From IMG/VR virus record IMGVR_UViG_2703718854_000005: a stretch of 21,181 nt of DNA; one strand, written 5' to 3'. The stretch comes from a virus. Lineage: Duplodnaviria; Heunggongvirae; Uroviricota; Caudoviricetes. Both the position numbers and the translations under genes were made by a program. How positions within the stretch are numbered: position 1 is the stretch's first letter; each line of letters begins with the position of its first letter. The notes under the pieces are model-generated. The model did no database searches. It had not been told where the DNA came from and worked only from the letters and a program-made list of their open reading frames with translations. Below are positions 1,659 through 19,154 of the stretch, in pieces.

Positions 1659-4130
1659 TTAAGAATCAGCCTGACTCGGGATCAGTTTTTGCCAGATAAC
1701 TGAAACGTATTTTGCCTGGTAACGGGCGTCATCAAGTGCATTATGGCGCTCACCTTCGAATGGAATAGCCGTTCTGGCATCGAAGTCTATGGCTTTCCCC
1801 AGCTCAACGATTGTGCGTACATCGCGATCGTTGTAGTAACGCCACGGGCAGGGGATCCCCTGCCGTTCGTATGAACGGCGCAAAATCGTGTTGTCGAAGT
1901 TGGCTCCATTTCCCCAAACCTGAACAAAAAATTCACCGGAGTTTTCGTCGATAAATTCTCGCAATTGTAACAGTGCATCATCTAACGGGATTTCATCGGT
2001 CATAATGGCAGATTGCGCTTCGCGTGATTGCTTAAGCCACCATTTAATGGTGTCCCGATCAATGACTCCGCCAGCAGTTTCCAGATCGATAGTCTTACTA
2101 AATTCCGGTCCCATATCTCCGGTTTGCGGATCGAAAAATATTGCACCTATTGAGATGATCGGGGCATCAGGATTTTTTCCCATGGTTTCAAGGTCGATCA
2201 TTAGATGGTCACACGTCCTGCTGGTGGATGTGATTTCGTGATGACCGTTCACCTTAATTGGGTGATCTGCCGTCTCGCCAGTTTCATTATCGCTATTGTG
2301 ATGCTGATTGCCGCCAGTGTTCTCCTTGTGTGGATGTTCAGCGCCTTCCATTTCCTCCGGATCATCTTCCTGAACTTCAACCTGATACTCTTCATCGAAT
2401 GTTTCTTGGTATGTTGCGTCGCCCATCACCGCGCCACAATCAGGGCAGTTGCCGCCGCCGGTCTGACCGCAGGCGGTGCAGACTTTTTCCACTTCCTGTT
2501 GCGCTACTGGTTCAGGCTGTTTCGTTTCTGGCTCGTTTTGTAACGCATTTGGACTGTTTTGTTCCGCTTTTTGGTAGTTCCGTTCCGATTCATGCTGGTT
2601 CTGGTTCACAGAATCGCGGGTCTGGAGCCCCTTAACCCATTTCGGATCATTCGGGTCACTAATCCCTTCAACAAATTCACCACGTGATGCAGCAAGCAAC
2701 TTATCGGCGTCAGGCTGGCTGATATTGGCTGCCTGCATAATTTTGTTTACTTCGTCAGCGGTAACTTTTATCGGCTCTGGTTGTTCTGAATCTTCAGCGG
2801 TATCTACATTTTGCGGTAAGCCCGTGTATGTGCCATTTTTTCGGGCAAAATATTCTTCTTTTGTGATTTCAGTGGCGCCAGCAGCCAGTGCCTTATCCAG
2901 ACCAGAGAGTTTGTTTGCGCGACCGTATTTTTCTCCGTCCTTATCTGCGAAGAGGAAATAGAACGGCCCCTCACGCTCTACAGATGGTTCAGCTTCCGGC
3001 GCGGTTTCATTTTTTGGGATATCAGATACCTCAGTTTCCACTGCATCAGTTTGTGTTTCTGATGACTGGAGAACATCAACAGTGCCCAGGTCTGTTTCTT
3101 CATTCTCAAACACGCCCTTTGTCGTCAGGTATTCGCAGATATATTTGTTCAGTGCTACGGGATCTTTGTGAATGTCGATCGGACGCTCACGGACAAGGCC
3201 AAAAATAGTTTGGCGGTCGTAGCGAAGGGCATCAGGCTGTTTGCGCATTGATGCCGAGATACGCTTCCAGTCTTCGCGGTCGTTGTCGATAACTTCTTTT
3301 TTTGCCCAGCGATGGATGCTGCCGTCAATGTTTCCGGCATCCACATCACTAGGCCAGAGAGCGTAGGCCAGTTCGTCATCCAGTGTTTTCCATGTCTGCT
3401 TGTATTCGCGATGAATGGCAGCAATGACCGGGCTGATTTTTCCTGTTGAATTTTCAGTGTACTGTTGATTGGCTCTGGCGCGGGCGAGATCAACAACAGA
3501 CGTGTATTTTCCGGTTTCCTTGCGTTCACCTTCGCGACGTTTTTTCCAGATGCGCATCTCTGCCTGAATTTCGGGCCATTTAGCACCAGGAATACATTTA
3601 TGCTTAACCCACCCAATGGCGTGCAACTTAAGCTCCGGATACATGGCGTTAACTTCTGGCATTTTCATCAACGCTTCAACGATATGTCCGTCGAATGTTG
3701 CCATGTCTTCCTGCAACAATTCCTGTGCGCTAATAACCATATCAACGGTGATGTTTTCACATGTGTCGAACTTAACCATGACAGCGTTCTGTACTTCAGG
3801 GGCCAGCTTGTCAAAAGTGACGTTCATCGGATCGGATTCAGTCTCAACCGGGACAAAAGAAGCAGACTCCTCATCCCAGCGGTTTTCCTGCATATATTCA
3901 GCATCCCATGAATCGAGGGCAGGGCGGGGTATGCCAGGTTTATCCTCGCAGACAATAAATTTATAAGCGCAGTCCTGAGCAGCCGGATAATGTTCCAGGA
4001 ATTGCCAGTGAAATTTTGCTCGAGCACGGCGTTCGTCGCCAGCTTCAATGGCTGTGGCTACAGCCACAGCGCCTTCTTCCCTTGTTGCCAGTTCGTCAGG
4101 AATAGCGGCGCAAATAAAGACTTTACTCAT
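1659..4130 (-). CDS. Large phage exonuclease with C-terminal DnaQ-like (DEDDh) 3'-5' exonuclease domain
   Basis: Long ORF; the track start is 4166 but the ATG at 4130 (MSKVF...) has a GAGG RBS. C-terminal motifs: Exo I IDLETMG, Exo II WGNGANFD, Exo III HNALDDARY. Central CxxC...CxxC zinc-ribbon-like segment and acidic low-complexity linker. Confidence 0.8.
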   Translation of the reverse strand: MSKVFICAAIPDELATREEGAVAVATAIEAGDERRARAKFHWQFLEHYPAAQDCAYKFIVCEDKPGIPRPALDSWDAEYMQENRWDEESASFVPVETESDPMNVTFDKLAPEVQNAVMVKFDTCENITVDMVISAQELLQEDMATFDGHIVEALMKMPEVNAMYPELKLHAIGWVKHKCIPGAKWPEIQAEMRIWKKRREGERKETGKYTSVVDLARARANQQYTENSTGKISPVIAAIHREYKQTWKTLDDELAYALWPSDVDAGNIDGSIHRWAKKEVIDNDREDWKRISASMRKQPDALRYDRQTIFGLVRERPIDIHKDPVALNKYICEYLTTKGVFENEETDLGTVDVLQSSETQTDAVETEVSDIPKNETAPEAEPSVEREGPFYFLFADKDGEKYGRANKLSGLDKALAAGATEITKEEYFARKNGTYTGLPQNVDTAEDSEQPEPIKVTADEVNKIMQAANISQPDADKLLAASRGEFVEGISDPNDPKWVKGLQTRDSVNQNQHESERNYQKAEQNSPNALQNEPETKQPEPVAQQEVEKVCTACGQTGGGNCPDCGAVMGDATYQETFDEEYQVEVQEDDPEEMEGAEHPHKENTGGNQHHNSDNETGETADHPIKVNGHHEITSTSRTCDHLMIDLETMGKNPDAPIISIGAIFFDPQTGDMGPEFSKTIDLETAGGVIDRDTIKWWLKQSREAQSAIMTDEIPLDDALLQLREFIDENSGEFFVQVWGNGANFDNTILRRSYERQGIPCPWRYYNDRDVRTIVELGKAIDFDARTAIPFEGERHNALDDARYQAKYVSVIWQKLIPSQADS

Positions 4131-4364
4131 TTGTTTTAACCTCATGACAGATTTAAGGATGAACAAATCCCTGCCATTGCTGGCATATAAGAATGAAACC
4201 GGATATTTATTACGGAACTGTTTTAAAGACCTGCCGGGATTTCGATATTATCCTGGTGAATAACTTTATCGACCGGGTACAGAGAATCCACCCATAACAC
4301 TGTTTTTGGTTTTAACTGTTCCGCGTGCGCTCAGCCGCATTCACCACATCACAAAATTCACTTT

Positions 4365-4422
4365 AAAAAGGGCGGCAGAGCAGTCACGGAGTAAAACTGA
4401 TACCGCCAAACGTCACCAGAAA
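4365..4422 (-). ncRNA. dicF: DicF small RNA (ftsZ-targeting sRNA of Qin-type prophages) with its terminator hairpin and U-tail
   Basis: Minus-strand sequence TTTCTGGTGACGTTTGGCGGTATCAGTTTTACTCCGTGACTGCTCTGCCGCCC followed by TTTTT matches DicF as I remember it. Lies downstream of ydfA-ydfB-ydfC as in the dicB operon. Confidence 0.85.
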
Positions 4423-6898: not shown

Positions 6899-7251
6899 GT
6901 GCACCGGCAACCATTCTTGATATGTGCTGTGGCAGCCGCATGTTCTGGTTCGATAAGTCTGACGAACGGGCGATATTCAGCGATATCAGAAAAGAAGGAT
7001 ACACATTACGCAATGGGAGACGCTTGATTATCAGCCCTGACATTATCGCAGATTTTCGTGCATTATCATTTGCAGACGCATCTTTTTCGATGGTTGTATT
7101 AGACCCTCCGCATCTTGAGAGTGTTGGTGATAACGCCTGGATGGGAAAGAAATATGGACGGCTGAATAAAGATGCCTGGCGTGATGATTCGCGACAGAGA
7201 TTTAAAGAAGCCTTTCGGGTGTTGAGGCCGCACGGCGTTCTGATTTTTTAA
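6895..7251 (+). pseudogene. SAM-dependent DNA methyltransferase-like fragment (C-terminally truncated)
   Basis: 118-aa ORF with ILDMCCGSR (motif I-like), VVLDPPH (DPPY-type motif IV) and RVLRPHGVLIF (RVLKPGG-like). Ends right after this motif and both other frames stop within a few codons. Too short for a complete methyltransferase. Confidence 0.45.
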
Positions 7252-7673
7252 TGGAATGAAACGCAAATACCGGTAAGCCAGATTCTGGCACTGACAGACA
7301 GAAAACCTGTTATCTGTCAACGAACAGGGAAAAAACGATAAAACCCACTGGATTATTTTTATGAAAGAGGCATCCAGTGAGTAGATTCGTAAGGCTACAG
7401 ATACGTATATCTGAATAATTAAATTCAGTTCTGTAAATAAAATTTAATCCTTAACCGGATGGATTTCTGCACCCTCAGAACATCAGGAGGCCGCCCGAAA
7501 GGGCGGTAGTGAAATGCGAAAGTTCAAAATTATTATTGAAACGGGAATAGCTGGTGGAGATTTTGAGGATGTATTCGAAGTGGACGATGACGCAACACCT
7601 GAGGAAATTCATGACGGAGCATAAGAAATTTTCTTTAACTACTGCAATTACTCATACCACGAAATAAAAGACG

Positions 7674-7865
7674 ATGAGGAAGAACAAAGTGGCTGATTTT
7701 TGTTCAGCTAAATATAACATCAGTTTTGAAGAGCGGGATGAACTATTAATGGACTATGGTGAGTTACGCGGTGGAAGTGCTGCTGATGTCGAATCCTAGC
7801 GTGATGACTATGAAGCGGGAAAAACTCCGGTCGAAGCATATTGTGATGAGTGGGGCGATGAATGA
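7674..7865 (+). pseudogene. Small ORF interrupted by an in-frame TAG (7797..7799)
   Basis: ATG 7674 gives 41 codons, then TAG, then 21 further sense codons (RDDYEAGKTPVEAYCDEWGDE) ending in a TGA that overlaps the next ATG (ATGA at 7862). Confidence 0.3.
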
Positions 7866-8149
7866 GCGAGATTAATTATCAGGAAGGGCATGAAACGGCG
7901 GGGCAAGCAAAACCAGTGGCATGGCGATATCGCTACGTGAAAAAAGGCGTTACGGACTTTCAGGGGAAGTAGTGGTCTGGTGACTGGAAATATGTACCGA
8001 AAAAAGAGGATTGTAACGACAGGCCGAACTATCAAATTCAGGCCTTATTCACTGCCTCACCAGTCCCAGTTACATCAGAAGAACTGGTTAAAGCTGTGCA
8101 CTTTTATGAACAACTAAAACGCGAAAATCCACCAACATCCGGCAACTAG
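7862..8149 (+). pseudogene. Small ORF (95 codons) interrupted by an in-frame TAG (7970..7972)
   Basis: ATG 7862 gives 36 codons, TAG, then 59 stop-free codons in the same frame to TAG 8147..8149. An open run that long in AT-rich sequence is unlikely by chance. Confidence 0.4.
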
Positions 8150-8403
8150 ATTAATGGATTAACTATGTCGGTTAAACGACCAGCCAACTGAAAAAGCGGA
8201 AACCTGATTACAGGTTGCCAGATAAGGCAATGAGCTACCTGGCGCGGAACGGACTGATAAGTATGGGGAATGTTTTACGATGAACCTTTAGACTAAAGAG
8301 TTTGTAACGCTATGTAAGTGATTTTTTCTGGTTTAGATATTTATATGTCCGGCCAAATTGAGGTGTGTTTAAATGTAATTGCACATTGATTGTAGGAGGA
8401 ATA

Positions 8404-8583
8404 ATGAAAAACGCATTGCAGTTTTTGTTTGTTGCGTTCTGGTTGTTCGCATCATGTATGCCCATCATCTTCACAGCAAGGTATATGGAAAAAGTTGATG
8501 TTTTGATATTAATATTTGGATATATAAATGCCCTTTTTTTAGGGGTGTTCATGGCGGTCATGTGCATTGAATACTGGCGGTAA
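8404..8583 (+). CDS. Small hydrophobic membrane protein (59 aa, two predicted TM helices)
   Basis: ATG 8404 preceded by a strong AGGAGG RBS. Product MKNALQFLFVAFWLFASCMPIIFTARYMEKVDVLILIFGYINALFLGVFMAVMCIEYWR. Lies in AT-rich DNA. Confidence 0.5.
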   Translation: MKNALQFLFVAFWLFASCMPIIFTARYMEKVDVLILIFGYINALFLGVFMAVMCIEYWR

Positions 8584-8889
8584 ATACAGCGAACTCCATT
8601 GGTTTAGTTGGATATTTACTGTGCTGGACAAAAACGGTTTGCGGGGAAATCTTAGTTAAGTAGAATGACTGCGGGTGCTTGAGGCTATCTGCCTCGGGCA
8701 TGGACACCAACGGCAGATAGAGAAAAGCCCCAGTTAACATTACGCGTCCTGCAAGACGCTTAACATTAATCTGAGGCCAATTTCATGCTAGACACATGTA
8801 GGTTAGCCTCTTACGTGCCGAAAGGCACGGAGAAGCAGGCTATTGTTAACACCAAGCTGTAATGTCCCCTTTGAACCATTCTAAAATGT

Positions 8890-8917: not shown

Positions 8918-10231
8918 ATGATCAAAGAGACTGTTACGATGAGTCATAAGGAACTCCACCGACTTCAGATTATTCAGGAACAAGCTGCGGCACGCATTGG
9001 CATTTCTATTCGGCAGGTTAAACGTCTGGTGCAACGGTATAGAAATGAAGGGCCTTCTGGTCTGGTTTCCCACCGACGTGGAAAGCGTCCTAATAATTCC
9101 TTTTCTACTGAATTCAGAGCAACAGTAATTTCACTCCTCAAAGGCCGTTACGCTGATTTTGGACCTACGTTTGCGTGCGAAAAATTGCGCGAGATACACG
9201 GTTTATCTTTATCCGTTGAAACTCTCAGAAAGTGGATGATAGAAGAGGGGTTATGGCGTGAACGCCGTCGTAAAATTGCCCGTATATATCAACGCCGCAT
9301 GCGACGACCATCTTACGGTGAACTGATCCAGATTGATGGCTCACCTCATGACTGGTTTGAAAATCGAGGCCCCAGATGTACACTGATCGTATTCATTGAT
9401 GATGCCACCAGTGCGTTGATGGCGTTGCGTTTTGTGCCTGCTGAAACAACCCGGGCTTACATGGAAACCCTCCGGGGTTACCTTAATGATCATGGCGTAC
9501 CGCTCGCTCTCTACTCTGATAGACACAGTATATTCAGGGTAAATAACCCAGAGCGGGAAGGTGAGCTGACCCAGTTCACTCGTGCGATAAAGACACTGGG
9601 CATCGAGCCAATCCATGCCAACAGCCCGCAGGCAAAAGGGCGGGTAGAGCGCGCCAATCAGACACTACAGGACAGGCTGGTCAAAGAAATGCGGCTTCAG
9701 AATATCAGTGATATTGAAACAGCAAATGCATGGTTGCCGACCTTTATTGAAGCCTATAACAACCGGTTCGCTACGTCGCCTCGTACTACTGATAATGCTC
9801 ATCTTGATGTGCACCATTCTGAAGAGGAACTGGGTTATATCTTCAGCCTACAGGCGAAGCGCGTTCTGTCTAAAAATCTCACTTTCCAGTACAAAAGCAG
9901 TGCGTTTCAGGTACGCAGTGAGGGCCGGGGATATCGACTTAGGCATTCGGTTGTTACTGTATGCGAGAACTTTGACGGTGAAATTAACGTTCTGTATGAC
10001 GGGAAAGCGCTGGGCTGGGAAAAGTATGTTGATGGCCCGGAGCCTATACCACTGGATGATGAAAAGAGTGTCCATGAACGAGTGGATAATGCCCGTATTG
10101 ATTTACGCTCAAAATACTATGTTAAACCTAAAGCTGACCATCCCTGGCTTACGCGCCGAACGCAAAGTCATCAGCAAGTTAAGCCCCCGAAGTTACCTAA
10201 AAAGAAGCCTGATCCCGATAAAAAAGATTGA
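8918..10231 (+). CDS. DDE transposase with retroviral-integrase-like (rve) core and N-terminal HTH; IS481/ISNCY-like, family tentative
   Basis: 437-aa ORF. N-terminal HTH-like region (IGISIRQVKRLVQRY), rve-type motifs (IQIDGSPHDW ... YSDRHSIF ... HANSPQAKGRVERANQTLQDRL), K-rich C-terminal tail. No istB-like partner downstream. Confidence 0.85.
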   Translation: MIKETVTMSHKELHRLQIIQEQAAARIGISIRQVKRLVQRYRNEGPSGLVSHRRGKRPNNSFSTEFRATVISLLKGRYADFGPTFACEKLREIHGLSLSVETLRKWMIEEGLWRERRRKIARIYQRRMRRPSYGELIQIDGSPHDWFENRGPRCTLIVFIDDATSALMALRFVPAETTRAYMETLRGYLNDHGVPLALYSDRHSIFRVNNPEREGELTQFTRAIKTLGIEPIHANSPQAKGRVERANQTLQDRLVKEMRLQNISDIETANAWLPTFIEAYNNRFATSPRTTDNAHLDVHHSEEELGYIFSLQAKRVLSKNLTFQYKSSAFQVRSEGRGYRLRHSVVTVCENFDGEINVLYDGKALGWEKYVDGPEPIPLDDEKSVHERVDNARIDLRSKYYVKPKADHPWLTRRTQSHQQVKPPKLPKKKPDPDKKD

Positions 10232-12059: not shown

Positions 12060-12130
12060 ACCAAAGCATGACATCTCTGTTTCGCACCGAAGGTGACACT
12101 TCTGCTTTGCGTTGACAGGAGAAGCAGGCT

Positions 12131-12286
12131 ATGAAGCAGCAAAAGGCGATGTTAATCGCCCTGATCGTCATCTGTTTAACCGTCATAGTGACGGCACTGG
12201 TAACGAGGAAAGACCTCTGCGAGGTACGAATCCGAACCGGCCAGACGGAGGTCGCTGTCTTCACAGCTTACGAACCTGAGGAGTAA
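12131..12286 (+). CDS. hokD: HokD (RelF) Hok-family membrane toxin
   Basis: Not in the ORF track (51 aa). Manual translation gives MKQQKAMLIALIVICLTVIVTALVTRKDLCEVRIRTGQTEVAVFTAYEPEE. Lies directly downstream of relE. Confidence 0.85.
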   Translation: MKQQKAMLIALIVICLTVIVTALVTRKDLCEVRIRTGQTEVAVFTAYEPEE

Positions 12287-15550: not shown

Positions 15551-15850
15551 AAAAATTCCTTAATACTGATAACTTGGCGCACTATACACACGTTCCTGAA
15601 GAAAGCTATAGTTTTTTGATGGGGTTGAAGATGGCTGGATGTCTAAAATAAACATTGCTTCATATGTTCAACTATGCGTTAATGATTGCGTCGGTTTGAA
15701 GAACAGACGATATACGAAGTAGTTTACTAAAGCAGTTCTCATTTCAGGTGTTATTCACTTATTCCTTCTTTGAGTCTCTCCAATTAAGTACGAAGTCGTT
15801 TCTGTTATGCAAACCATTTATGCCGAAAGGCTCAAGTTAAGGAATGTAGA

Positions 15851-16066
15851 ATGTCAAATAAAATGACTGGTTTAGTAAAATGGTTTAACGCTGATAAAGG
15901 TTTCGGCTTTATTTCTCCTGTTGATGGTAGTAAAGATGTGTTTGTGCATTTTTCTGCGATTCAGAATGATAATTATCGAACCTTATTTGAAGGTCAAAAG
16001 GTTACCTTCTCTATAGAGAGTGGTGCTAAAGGTCCTGCAGCAGCAAATGTCATCATTACTGATTAA
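15851..16066 (+). CDS. cspB: Cold-shock protein CspB
   Basis: 71-aa ORF with the CspA-family RNP motifs (KGFGFI, VFVHF). Matches CspB as I remember it; preceded by a long AT-rich 5' leader. Confidence 0.85.
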
Positions 16067-16177
16067 AATTCATCGCTCGTCTGTATACGATAACGAAGAA
16101 GGCTGATGCCTGAGTAGAGATACGGACAGAGTAGTGAATATTGGATCTCTTTAATAAAAAGTAAGGAGGTCCAATAC

Positions 16178-18375: not shown

Positions 18376-18737
18376 GGTAATATTAAATCGGAACATTTAC
18401 ATCGCGGAATGTAAAATTTAAATAAAAAGGACTCTTCCATGAGCCAAAATTCCTGAAATCTTAAGGGTAAGATAAAAGGTCTTAATCAGAATGACACGTT
18501 TTATTAATAAATAAAGCTATTCTTTCATTGCTGTGTTTTTCTTTACAAAAGTAATCCTTGCTATGGGTGGTTAATCATGCGTTAATGGTGTTCTGGTTTG
18601 TTACAAATTTATCTGAAGCAGTCATTGTTATAATTTTATTATTTGTACCTCTTGAGATTTCCTTGTTGGTTTTTCTCTCTGATATTTTTTTTCGGACCAT
18701 TCTGCCCAAGGGCTAATTTCTTCAAAAGGTAATAATT

Positions 18738-18950
18738 ATGTCTAACAAAATGACTGGTTTAGTGAAATGGTTTAACCCTGAAAAAGGTTTTGGTTTCATC
18801 ACGCCGAAAGATGGCAGCAAAGATGTGTTTGTCCATTTCTCAGCAATTCAGAGCAACGATTTCAAAACATTAACTGAGAATCAGGAAGTTGAATTTGGTA
18901 TTGAGAACGGACCTAAAGGTCCTGCCGCTGTTCATGTAGTGGCGCTTTGA
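18738..18950 (+). CDS. cspI: Cold-shock protein CspI
   Basis: 70-aa [73 protein letters not shown] matches CspI as I remember it. Confidence 0.85.
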
Positions 18951-19154
18951 GGTAGACAATATTACAAACCATATTCACTTTAGATGCCCGTGTTGTCATG
19001 GTTCCCAGTATAGAACATCATCTTTTGATGTTTCTGACATGAATCCTTTCGGGGCAAAATGTATCTTTTGTAAATCAATGATGATTACATTTGATAATAT
19101 TTCACAATACTTAAATGCCAGCCGTCTGTCGTTGGATTTAAAAAAGTGAAAATG

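Follow-up and report, generated by a model that had tools for sequence, protein, structure and literature searches.

The window analysed here is the whole 21,181-nucleotide (nt) stretch of the IMG/VR virus record IMGVR_UViG_2703718854_000005, a Qin-type lambdoid prophage of Escherichia coli inserted beside the gene rspB. On its plus strand, at positions 8404–8583, lies an open reading frame (ORF) of 59 codons plus TAA, which encodes a small membrane protein, MKNALQFLFVAFWLFASCMPIIFTARYMEKVDVLILIFGYINALFLGVFMAVMCIEYWR. A Shine-Dalgarno (SD) sequence, AGGAGG, is located at 8394–8399 (+), 4 bases 5′ of the ATG. The arrangement AGGAGG-N4-ATG occurs once in the 21-kb window, against 0.06 occurrences expected, and AGGGGG replaces AGGAGG in 7 of the 29 haplotypes of the region. 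That this ORF is a real gene, that its product has the character of a membrane protein and that it is carried as a cassette are conclusions which, taken jointly, we hold with high confidence.

The G+C content is 37% in the ORF and 36% in the segment 8270–8626, compared with 45% in the window. A first-pass annotation, made from the letters of the window, had reported a hydrophobic 59-amino acid (aa) ORF with an AGGAGG ribosome-binding site in AT-rich surroundings, and both the frame, exactly at 8404–8583 (+), and its setting were recovered in our analysis. The length of the ORF is no more than expected by chance, the window containing 83 ORFs of at least 60 aa. Unlike the length, the existence of a conserved paralog is far beyond chance.

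In the left part of the window, the order on the plus strand is dicC (cro-like), a YdaT-like gene, an O-like gene, DUF977 (LygF), an S-adenosylmethionine methyltransferase gene, several decayed small ORFs and the ORF itself. It is followed, in the right part, by a hok leader, a transposase ORF of the ISNCY family, ydfW, flxA, ydfV, relBE, hokD, rem, ydfU and a Q-like antiterminator gene. The ORF is therefore found in the variable "nin-like" region, which extends from the replication genes to hok and Q, and on the same strand as the early-right region. The decayed ORFs that the first-pass annotation had noted upstream are RefSeq pseudogenes with internal stops or frameshifts, and its insertion sequence (IS)-like element downstream is the ISNCY-family transposase ORF at 8918–10,231. 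The same annotation had described the ORF as standing alone, thereby overlooking the hok/mok/sok leader that adjoins it, starting 90 nt downstream. The window is matched at 100% by many complete genomes, including that of ATCC 8739 and a record labelled DH5alpha, and it is more complete than the Qin prophage of MG1655, in which the segment with the ORF is deleted between ydfX and ydfW.

Conservation of the reading frame in a second lineage

The decisive evidence that the ORF is a gene comes from a second lineage of 59-aa proteins (the paralog), because close copies of the ORF, being at least 95% identical, carry little information. The paralog was found by phmmer over 1.84 billion cluster representatives (P0039) and by a profile search of 5.8 billion proteins (P0044), and is 41% identical to the window protein over its full length, without gaps. 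At the nucleotide level the two ORFs are 59% identical, with 58, 70 and 48% identity at the first, second and third codon positions, which is the signature of a coding sequence. By the NG86 method, the nonsynonymous divergence (dN) is 0.47 and the synonymous divergence (dS) is 1.98, giving a dN/dS of ∼0.24. The aligned translations score 145 (BLOSUM62) in the frame of the ORF versus at most 56 in the five other frames. In 20,000 simulations with the same number of random substitutions, none reached a score of 145, and the frame stayed open in 7.5%. In the flanks, gaps are needed to align the two loci and identity drops to near-random. Frame-specific conservation, a dN/dS below 1, and conservation of both the length and the ATG start are thus the properties found for this ORF.

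Two other ways of reading the locus were considered and rejected. A 72-aa version with a GTG start is used by some annotations, but its frame is closed in the paralog by a stop located five codons 5′ of the ATG; hence, the ATG is the start. The 85-aa antisense ORF at 8310–8567 (−) is a shadow ORF, interrupted by two stops in the paralog, with a BLOSUM62 score of 55, a hydrophilic translation and no match in PHROGs. It is this antisense ORF, as "hornerin" or a hypothetical protein, that the phage records PV340562.1 and ON470612.1 annotate instead of the ORF. In RefSeq, whose annotation is made with PGAP, all 90 genome rows inspected show no feature at the ORF.

Across the phage, virome, metagenome and genome collections, 153 of the 154 full-length copies of the window type keep the frame open to its end, as do all 11 copies of the paralog. 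The first-pass annotation had proposed that lack of conservation, with frame-destroying changes in related prophages, would speak against its prediction; what the relatives show is the same frame, conserved in the paralog and intact in all but one of the full-length window-type copies collected. Among the 29 haplotypes, variable positions amount to 2.8% in the ORF, with no indels, and to 8.7% in the 104 nt upstream (9 of the 104 positions of 8300–8403), 9.0% in the spacer and 17.5% in the hok leader. The amino acid changes are A16V, V31I, I37M, Y40H, L44I, M53T and Y57C in the window type, and V6M, A31V and R33I in the paralog. These polymorphisms are conservative, and three of them (I37M, Y40H and Y57C) switch to exactly the residue of the paralog.

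Some observations weigh against a gene under selection. Polymorphisms within the subfamilies comprise 10 nonsynonymous changes and 1 synonymous change, and since almost all are nonsynonymous, present-day purifying selection cannot be shown. Moreover, as the copies within a subfamily are at least 95% identical, intactness alone has little power. One diverged copy (positions 3986–4180 of locus L008, from CP178302.1), located beside an intact hok, combines a weaker SD with three or more changes that break the frame. It may be a true pseudogene or else an assembly error, the latter because its indels fall in homopolymer runs. In addition, at least eight independent truncated, IS-disrupted or frameshifted versions are present at low frequency in the protein database. 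Together with the lack of a PGAP annotation in the listed rows and of a detectable promoter, the excess of nonsynonymous changes and the decayed L008 copy are what would be expected of a formerly coding ORF drifting neutrally in cryptic prophages, or of one never expressed. We regard such a non-functional ORF as very improbable, given the long-term dN/dS of ∼0.24, the exact conservation of length, the lower variability of the ORF than of its flanks, the conservative polymorphisms, several of which toggle between the residues of the two subfamilies, and the persistence of the paralog as the sole intact ORF of a heavily deleted prophage remnant (described below).

Predicted form of the protein

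Hydropathy analysis revealed two hydrophobic segments, helix 1 at about residues 4–25 (8413–8478) and helix 2 at about residues 31–55 (8494–8568), with peaks of 2.1 and 2.4 in a 19-residue Kyte-Doolittle window. The grand average of hydropathy (GRAVY) is 1.27. The AlphaFold2 model is a helical hairpin with helices at residues 2–24 and 30–58, and with a predicted local distance difference test score (pLDDT) of 72. Hydropathy and model therefore agree with the protein with two transmembrane (TM) helices envisaged in the first-pass annotation.

The residues common to both lineages include W13; S17-C18-x-P20-I21-I22-x-T24; F38-G39-x-x-N42-A43-L44-x-x-G47-V48-F49; and I55-E56-x-W58-R59, this last block having been read by eye from two full-length sequences. 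In helix 2, G39, A43 and G47, together with N42, would form a face of small and polar residues typical of helix–helix association, and the protein may be oligomeric. The paralog has the residues R2 and K3 at its N-terminus and an acidic loop (E26, E30), from which, by the positive-inside rule, we infer an N-in/C-in topology with a short periplasmic loop.

The invariant S17 and C18 allow another form to be considered, that of a small lipoprotein in which residues 1–17 would be a signal peptide and C18 the lipidated residue of a lipobox. Processing by Lgt and LspA would leave 42 residues, lipidated at an N-terminus on the periplasmic side and held in the inner membrane by the single C-terminal helix. 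The lipobox would read L-F-A-S|C18 in the window protein and I-V-I-S|C18 in its paralog, and it is preserved under the A16V polymorphism. A rule of the PROSITE PS51257 type fits both subfamilies by eye, with K or R in the first three residues, an uncharged h-region and [LIVF][AVI]S at −3 to −1. Known phage exclusion factors, among them Cor, Llp and TraT-like proteins, are lipoproteins. On the other hand, the residues following the cysteine are hydrophobic (MPIIFTA in the window protein, VPIILTS in the paralog), unlike typical mature lipoprotein N-termini. In addition, a continuous stretch of 22 residues runs across C18, modeled by AlphaFold2 as one helix, and lipobox-like strings in TM helices are frequent false positives. 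The hydrophobic residues after the cysteine argue for a plain TM helix as the probable form, and a lipoprotein seems to us unlikely. Whether the protein is lipidated is a matter of its form, orthogonal to its role, since a lipoprotein would be compatible with exclusion as well as with other functions.

The cassette and its distribution

Alignment of the window with the paralog locus L089 (MAFFT) places the limits of homology at ∼8270 and ∼8620. An upstream leader at 8270–8403 (+) is weakly conserved between the two loci, and a 3′ tail at 8584–8626 (+) retains homology with the paralog for ∼35 nt past the stop and ends at a mosaic junction with the hok module. In the hok loci of phages without the ORF (933W, 689R5, Tritos and others), the match to the window begins at the equivalent of ∼8627–8654, with different genes upstream. 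This border of the hok module and the limits of homology with the paralog define an AT-rich cassette of ∼355 bp. Judging from these junctions, the hok module is apparently an independent mosaic unit, with its border ∼43 nt past the stop of the ORF.

The cassette is precisely absent from the close relatives vB_EcoS-689R5, Tritos and the Qin prophage of BL21(DE3), where the same gene order is kept. In BL21(DE3) (positions 1068–1844 of locus L173, from NC_012971.2), DUF977 is followed after 260 nt by hokD, with neither the ORF cassette nor the relBE insert, so that the prophage passes directly from DUF977 to the hok leader and leaves no room for the ORF. Both subfamilies follow replication-region genes of the DUF977/LygF-YdaW type and directly precede hok. 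The ORF is thus a genuine accessory gene of lambdoid prophages of the Qin and Rac types in E. coli. The term "moron" used in the first-pass annotation is appropriate as regards presence or absence between conserved flanks and the deviant G+C content (36% vs. 45%); the promoter and terminator of its own that it implies were not convincingly found.

Of the 5426 complete E. coli genomes, 1568 (29%) have the window-type ORF and 1045 (19%) the paralog. Taken together, the two subfamilies occur in, among others, ST131, CFT073, Nissle-type strains, ATCC 8739 and Shigella. Neither phmmer nor the profile search in the protein collections mentioned above revealed a third subfamily, and none emerged from pattern scans covering GTDB genomes, metagenomes and IMG/VR, which included motif-anchored DNA patterns independent of gene calling. 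In the collections scanned, the family would thus consist of only two lineages, both from Escherichia/Shigella. The peptide strings of the ORF product appear in no paper of the literature searched, and the papers on Hok diversity and hokW do not mention the upstream ORF.

The paralog in a Rac remnant

In CFT073-like strains, the paralog is located in the interval between ttcA and uspF, within a remnant of a Rac-type prophage. We take this interval to be the Rac attachment region, from what is known of K-12, where ttcA adjoins intR. The remnant (positions 7100–8700 of locus L090, from CFT073, NZ_CP058222.1) comprises, in order, fragments of an integrase gene and of a DUF1627/LygF-YdaW gene, then ∼650 nt of AT-rich DNA, and next the intact ORF with a hok remnant behind it; a frameshifted ABC permease gene is also present. 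In NZ_CP058222.1, the paralog is on the minus strand at about 2,736,44x–2,736,62x. The hok remnant is missing its leader and first half, the deletion starting within ∼15 nt of the right border of the cassette. Every annotated feature of the remnant is a pseudogene, and the paralog, which is not annotated, is its sole intact ORF. No repressor gene is annotated in this ttcA–uspF remnant, which is found in 1045 of the 5426 genomes. With replication genes before it and hok after it in both lineages, the ORF occupies the same architectural slot. It has outlived hok in the CFT073 lineage, and hok exists without the ORF in many others.

The neighboring hok locus

Downstream of the cassette, at 8673–8843 (+), lies an orphan leader of hok that includes sok and a shortened mok (8785–8862). 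The Rfam model RF01794 recognizes this leader at 8673–8844 with 104 bits, and it is cut at the hok start codon. In phage vB_EcoS-640R1 and 44 other collected loci, an intact hok starts 257–259 nt past the stop of the ORF. In the window and 41 other loci, which contain an insert, homology breaks exactly at the hok ATG. A 15-bp direct repeat, GGAGAAGCAGGCTAT, is found on the plus strand at 8829–8843 and, just before hokD, at 12,118–12,132 (two exact matches vs. 0 expected). The repeats bracket a 3.27-kb segment with the ISNCY-type transposase ORF, ydfW, flxA, ydfV and relBE. Since one copy lies at the break in hok and the other precedes hokD, this segment would have split a single hok locus and placed hokD behind relBE, and hokD (which, with the repeat before it, lies at 12,118–12,286) is the other half of the split locus. 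These features suggest that the relBE-hokD arrangement of Qin may have arisen by insertion of the segment at the hok start codon.

Within the insert, the transposase ORF is continuous over 437 codons, and PGAP treats its upstream part as an incomplete transposase pseudogene. Its last 49 codons (10,082–10,231) are in frame with, and identical to, RefSeq YdfW, so that YdfW corresponds to the tail of the transposase ORF.

The constant proximity of hok raises the question of whether the protein could be a regulatory subunit, possibly coupled to Hok, that modulates a membrane protein of the host or phage, as AcrZ, MgtS and MgrB do. Most characterized small membrane proteins of E. coli act in this way, the helix-packing face is conserved, and synteny with hok has been kept in two lineages whose nucleotide identity is down to 59%. 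Nevertheless, hok is widespread without the ORF (933W, 689R5, Tritos, BL21), the ORF persists where hok is split, as in the window, or destroyed, as in CFT073, and no partner can be identified in the context. We consider a regulatory role of this kind doubtful.

Transcription, RNA structure and the possibility of a toxin

No convincing sigma-70 promoter for the ORF was detected by a consensus scan or with a position weight matrix (PWM), the weak PWM candidates not being homologously placed in the two subfamilies, and no terminator was found between the stop of the ORF and the hok promoter. Co-transcription with the early-right operon, under a DicA-type repressor, would be the simplest reading. 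About 105 nt 5′ of the ATG, a 13-bp palindrome, CTTTAGACTAAAG, occupies 8286–8298 (+); its counterpart in the paralog locus (L089, ∼702–714) is CTTCAGTCTGAAG, in which a T:A pair is replaced by C:G in a compensatory manner. The palindrome might serve as an operator or form a small hairpin. On the minus strand, a terminator-like hairpin at 8201–8216 was weighed as the possible end point of an antisense RNA and rejected: in vB_EcoS-640R1 its stem is mutated and its T-run deleted, and it is probably a chance occurrence.

Fold prediction gave z-scores of −1.1 for the plus strand (the mRNA) and +0.8 for the minus strand; the minimum free energy structure of the mRNA leaves the SD unpaired. Apart from sok (8673–8844, outside the ORF), the Rfam scan revealed no RNA family near the ORF, and no strong promoter was found on the minus strand. 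Regarding type I toxin–antitoxin systems, then, no overlapping antisense RNA was found among the known RNA families scanned, and the SD is exposed. The first-pass annotation had identified neither a partner antitoxin nor an antisense RNA, which is true of the ORF itself; a sok does lie nearby, but it is that of hok and does not overlap the ORF. Elsewhere in the window, the matches at the Rfam gathering score were the small RNA DicF (4370–4421, −) and two thermoregulator leaders of the cspA type (15,690–16,082 and 18,592–18,977, both +), which are cspB- and cspI-like; all are expected for Qin.

These results bear on the possibility that the ORF encodes a membrane-damaging toxin or lysis effector, like GhoT/OrtT, a pinholin or YdfD, which would be silenced by the repressor and, upon induction, would oligomerize via helix 2 and dissipate the membrane potential. 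The small size of the protein, its GRAVY of 1.27, its two TM helices and the conserved small-xxx-small/Asn face of helix 2 are consistent with such an activity. So is its location, directly beside hok in both subfamilies and in a part of the prophage where small toxic genes abound (dicB, ydfD, hok, relE), and a toxin would account for the occasional knockouts by IS or frameshift. Conversely, the Pfam models of Hok_Gef, GhoT/OrtT and holins are unmatched even at E-values up to 10, neither an antitoxin gene nor an antisense RNA turned up, and the mRNA has no unusual structure and leaves its SD free. The protein also has no charged holin-like C-terminal tail, and the lysis cassette of the prophage (essD-ydfR-rrrQ-rzpQ, at ∼16.7–18.4 kb of the window) is 8 kb downstream of the ORF. 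Furthermore, the paralog is maintained intact in ∼19% of E. coli genomes, in a remnant without an annotated repressor gene. A toxin is, in our opinion, not a likely explanation.

A possible role in superinfection exclusion

The role that we favor over that of a toxin, tentatively and as a guess, is superinfection exclusion by a non-lethal factor of the inner membrane. The ORF would be expressed as part of the early-right operon, with efficient translation from the exposed AGGAGG, and the 59-aa product would form an N-in/C-in helical hairpin in the cytoplasmic membrane. In helix 1, the invariant S17-C18-x-P20-I-I-x-T24 would form a kink, also readable as a lipobox, and in helix 2 the invariant G39-x-x-N42-A43-x-x-x-G47 would provide a face of the kind that drives helix–helix association. 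The protein would probably act as an oligomer or by docking onto a membrane protein of the host or phage. It may thus be a non-lethal membrane factor that benefits the lysogen, most likely through superinfection exclusion at the DNA-entry step or at another membrane step. We lean toward a beneficial product because of its retention in the remnant, its cassette-like distribution and its conservative, mostly nonsynonymous variation, and also because the SD is accessible and the mRNA has no unusual structure.

Several results count against superinfection exclusion. Exclusion needs expression in the lysogen, and no promoter of its own was found for the ORF. The profile search that the first-pass annotation had proposed as a check returned no family: the window protein has no match in Pfam (E-values up to 10), NCBIfam, PHROGs or PADLOC, and the profile search of PDB sequences gave 0 matches. 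For the paralog, only sub-threshold matches were obtained, to DUF4212 (13.9 bits vs. a cutoff of 30) and to phrog_6298 (E-value 0.12). Likewise, Foldseek comparison of the AlphaFold2 model with BFVD returned generic hairpins only, all with E-values above 0.9. By sequence, the protein matches none of the known exclusion or defense families (T4 Imm, YebO/gp15, SieB and the PADLOC systems).

A bolder proposal is that the two proteins constitute a new family of small membrane proteins, possibly lipid-anchored and restricted to prophages of Escherichia, that protect the host, for instance by blocking DNA entry of superinfecting phages, and that the copy in the Rac remnant has been domesticated. According to it, selection would have preserved the copy of CFT073 and Nissle-type strains as the rest of the prophage, the neighboring hok among it, was lost by deletion. 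We put this forward as an improbable idea.

The results imply a correction of the annotation of a considerable fraction of E. coli genomes (29% and 19% for the two subfamilies) and of phage records that annotate the wrong strand. Phage resistance, membrane physiology or the induction of the prophage may be influenced by the product. As MG1655 and BL21 are naturally devoid of the ORF, they are ready-made test backgrounds, which makes it a tractable candidate; for BL21, start-site ribosome-profiling data reportedly exist.

Comparison with known systems

From its sequence, the ORF product seems to resemble other small membrane proteins of phages, yet every sequence-based membership test tried left it outside the established families. 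With GhoT/OrtT (57 aa, two TM helices, PF10753), it shares its size, two hydrophobic helices and the near absence of a soluble part, and OrtT, like the ORF, is devoid of a cognate antitoxin. It differs from them in having no match to PF10753, in its location in a prophage cassette and in lacking a ghoS-like neighbor, its own neighbors being decayed phage ORFs upstream and the hok leader downstream. T4 Imm, the HK97 gp15/YebO family and P22 SieA are likewise small accessory proteins of the inner membrane encoded by phages, and the ORF, for its part, is kept in lysogens and remnants. It has no sequence or profile match to these proteins and is in a nin-like position.

The Hok/Gef peptides of the hokD/hokW type are also small hydrophobic prophage products, and always adjoin the ORF. 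Hok, however, has one TM helix, a periplasmic tail with a cysteine, a highly structured mRNA and the antisense RNA Sok, whereas the ORF encodes two hydrophobic helices, has an unstructured mRNA and no antisense partner that we could find, and its product does not match PF01848 (hmmscan, E-values up to 10). Class II holins and pinholins (S21) share with the ORF product two TM helices, the predicted N-in/C-in topology and a face of glycine and small residues. Unlike them, the ORF product lacks a basic C-terminal tail (its C-terminus is only E-Y-W-R) and a dual-start motif, and it matches no holin family of Pfam or PHROGs.

A parallel in kind is offered by a ribosome-profiling preprint on CFT073, which describes 15 intergenic small membrane ORFs ("smemORFs") (bioRxiv 10.64898/2026.09.28.754932). 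As presented there, they are the same class of object as the ORF, that is, unannotated, strain-variable, AT-rich, island-borne and with TM helices. CFT073 carries the paralog, and the coordinates given for SMP3 and SMP7 correspond to other loci (bioRxiv 10.64898/2026.09.28.754932).

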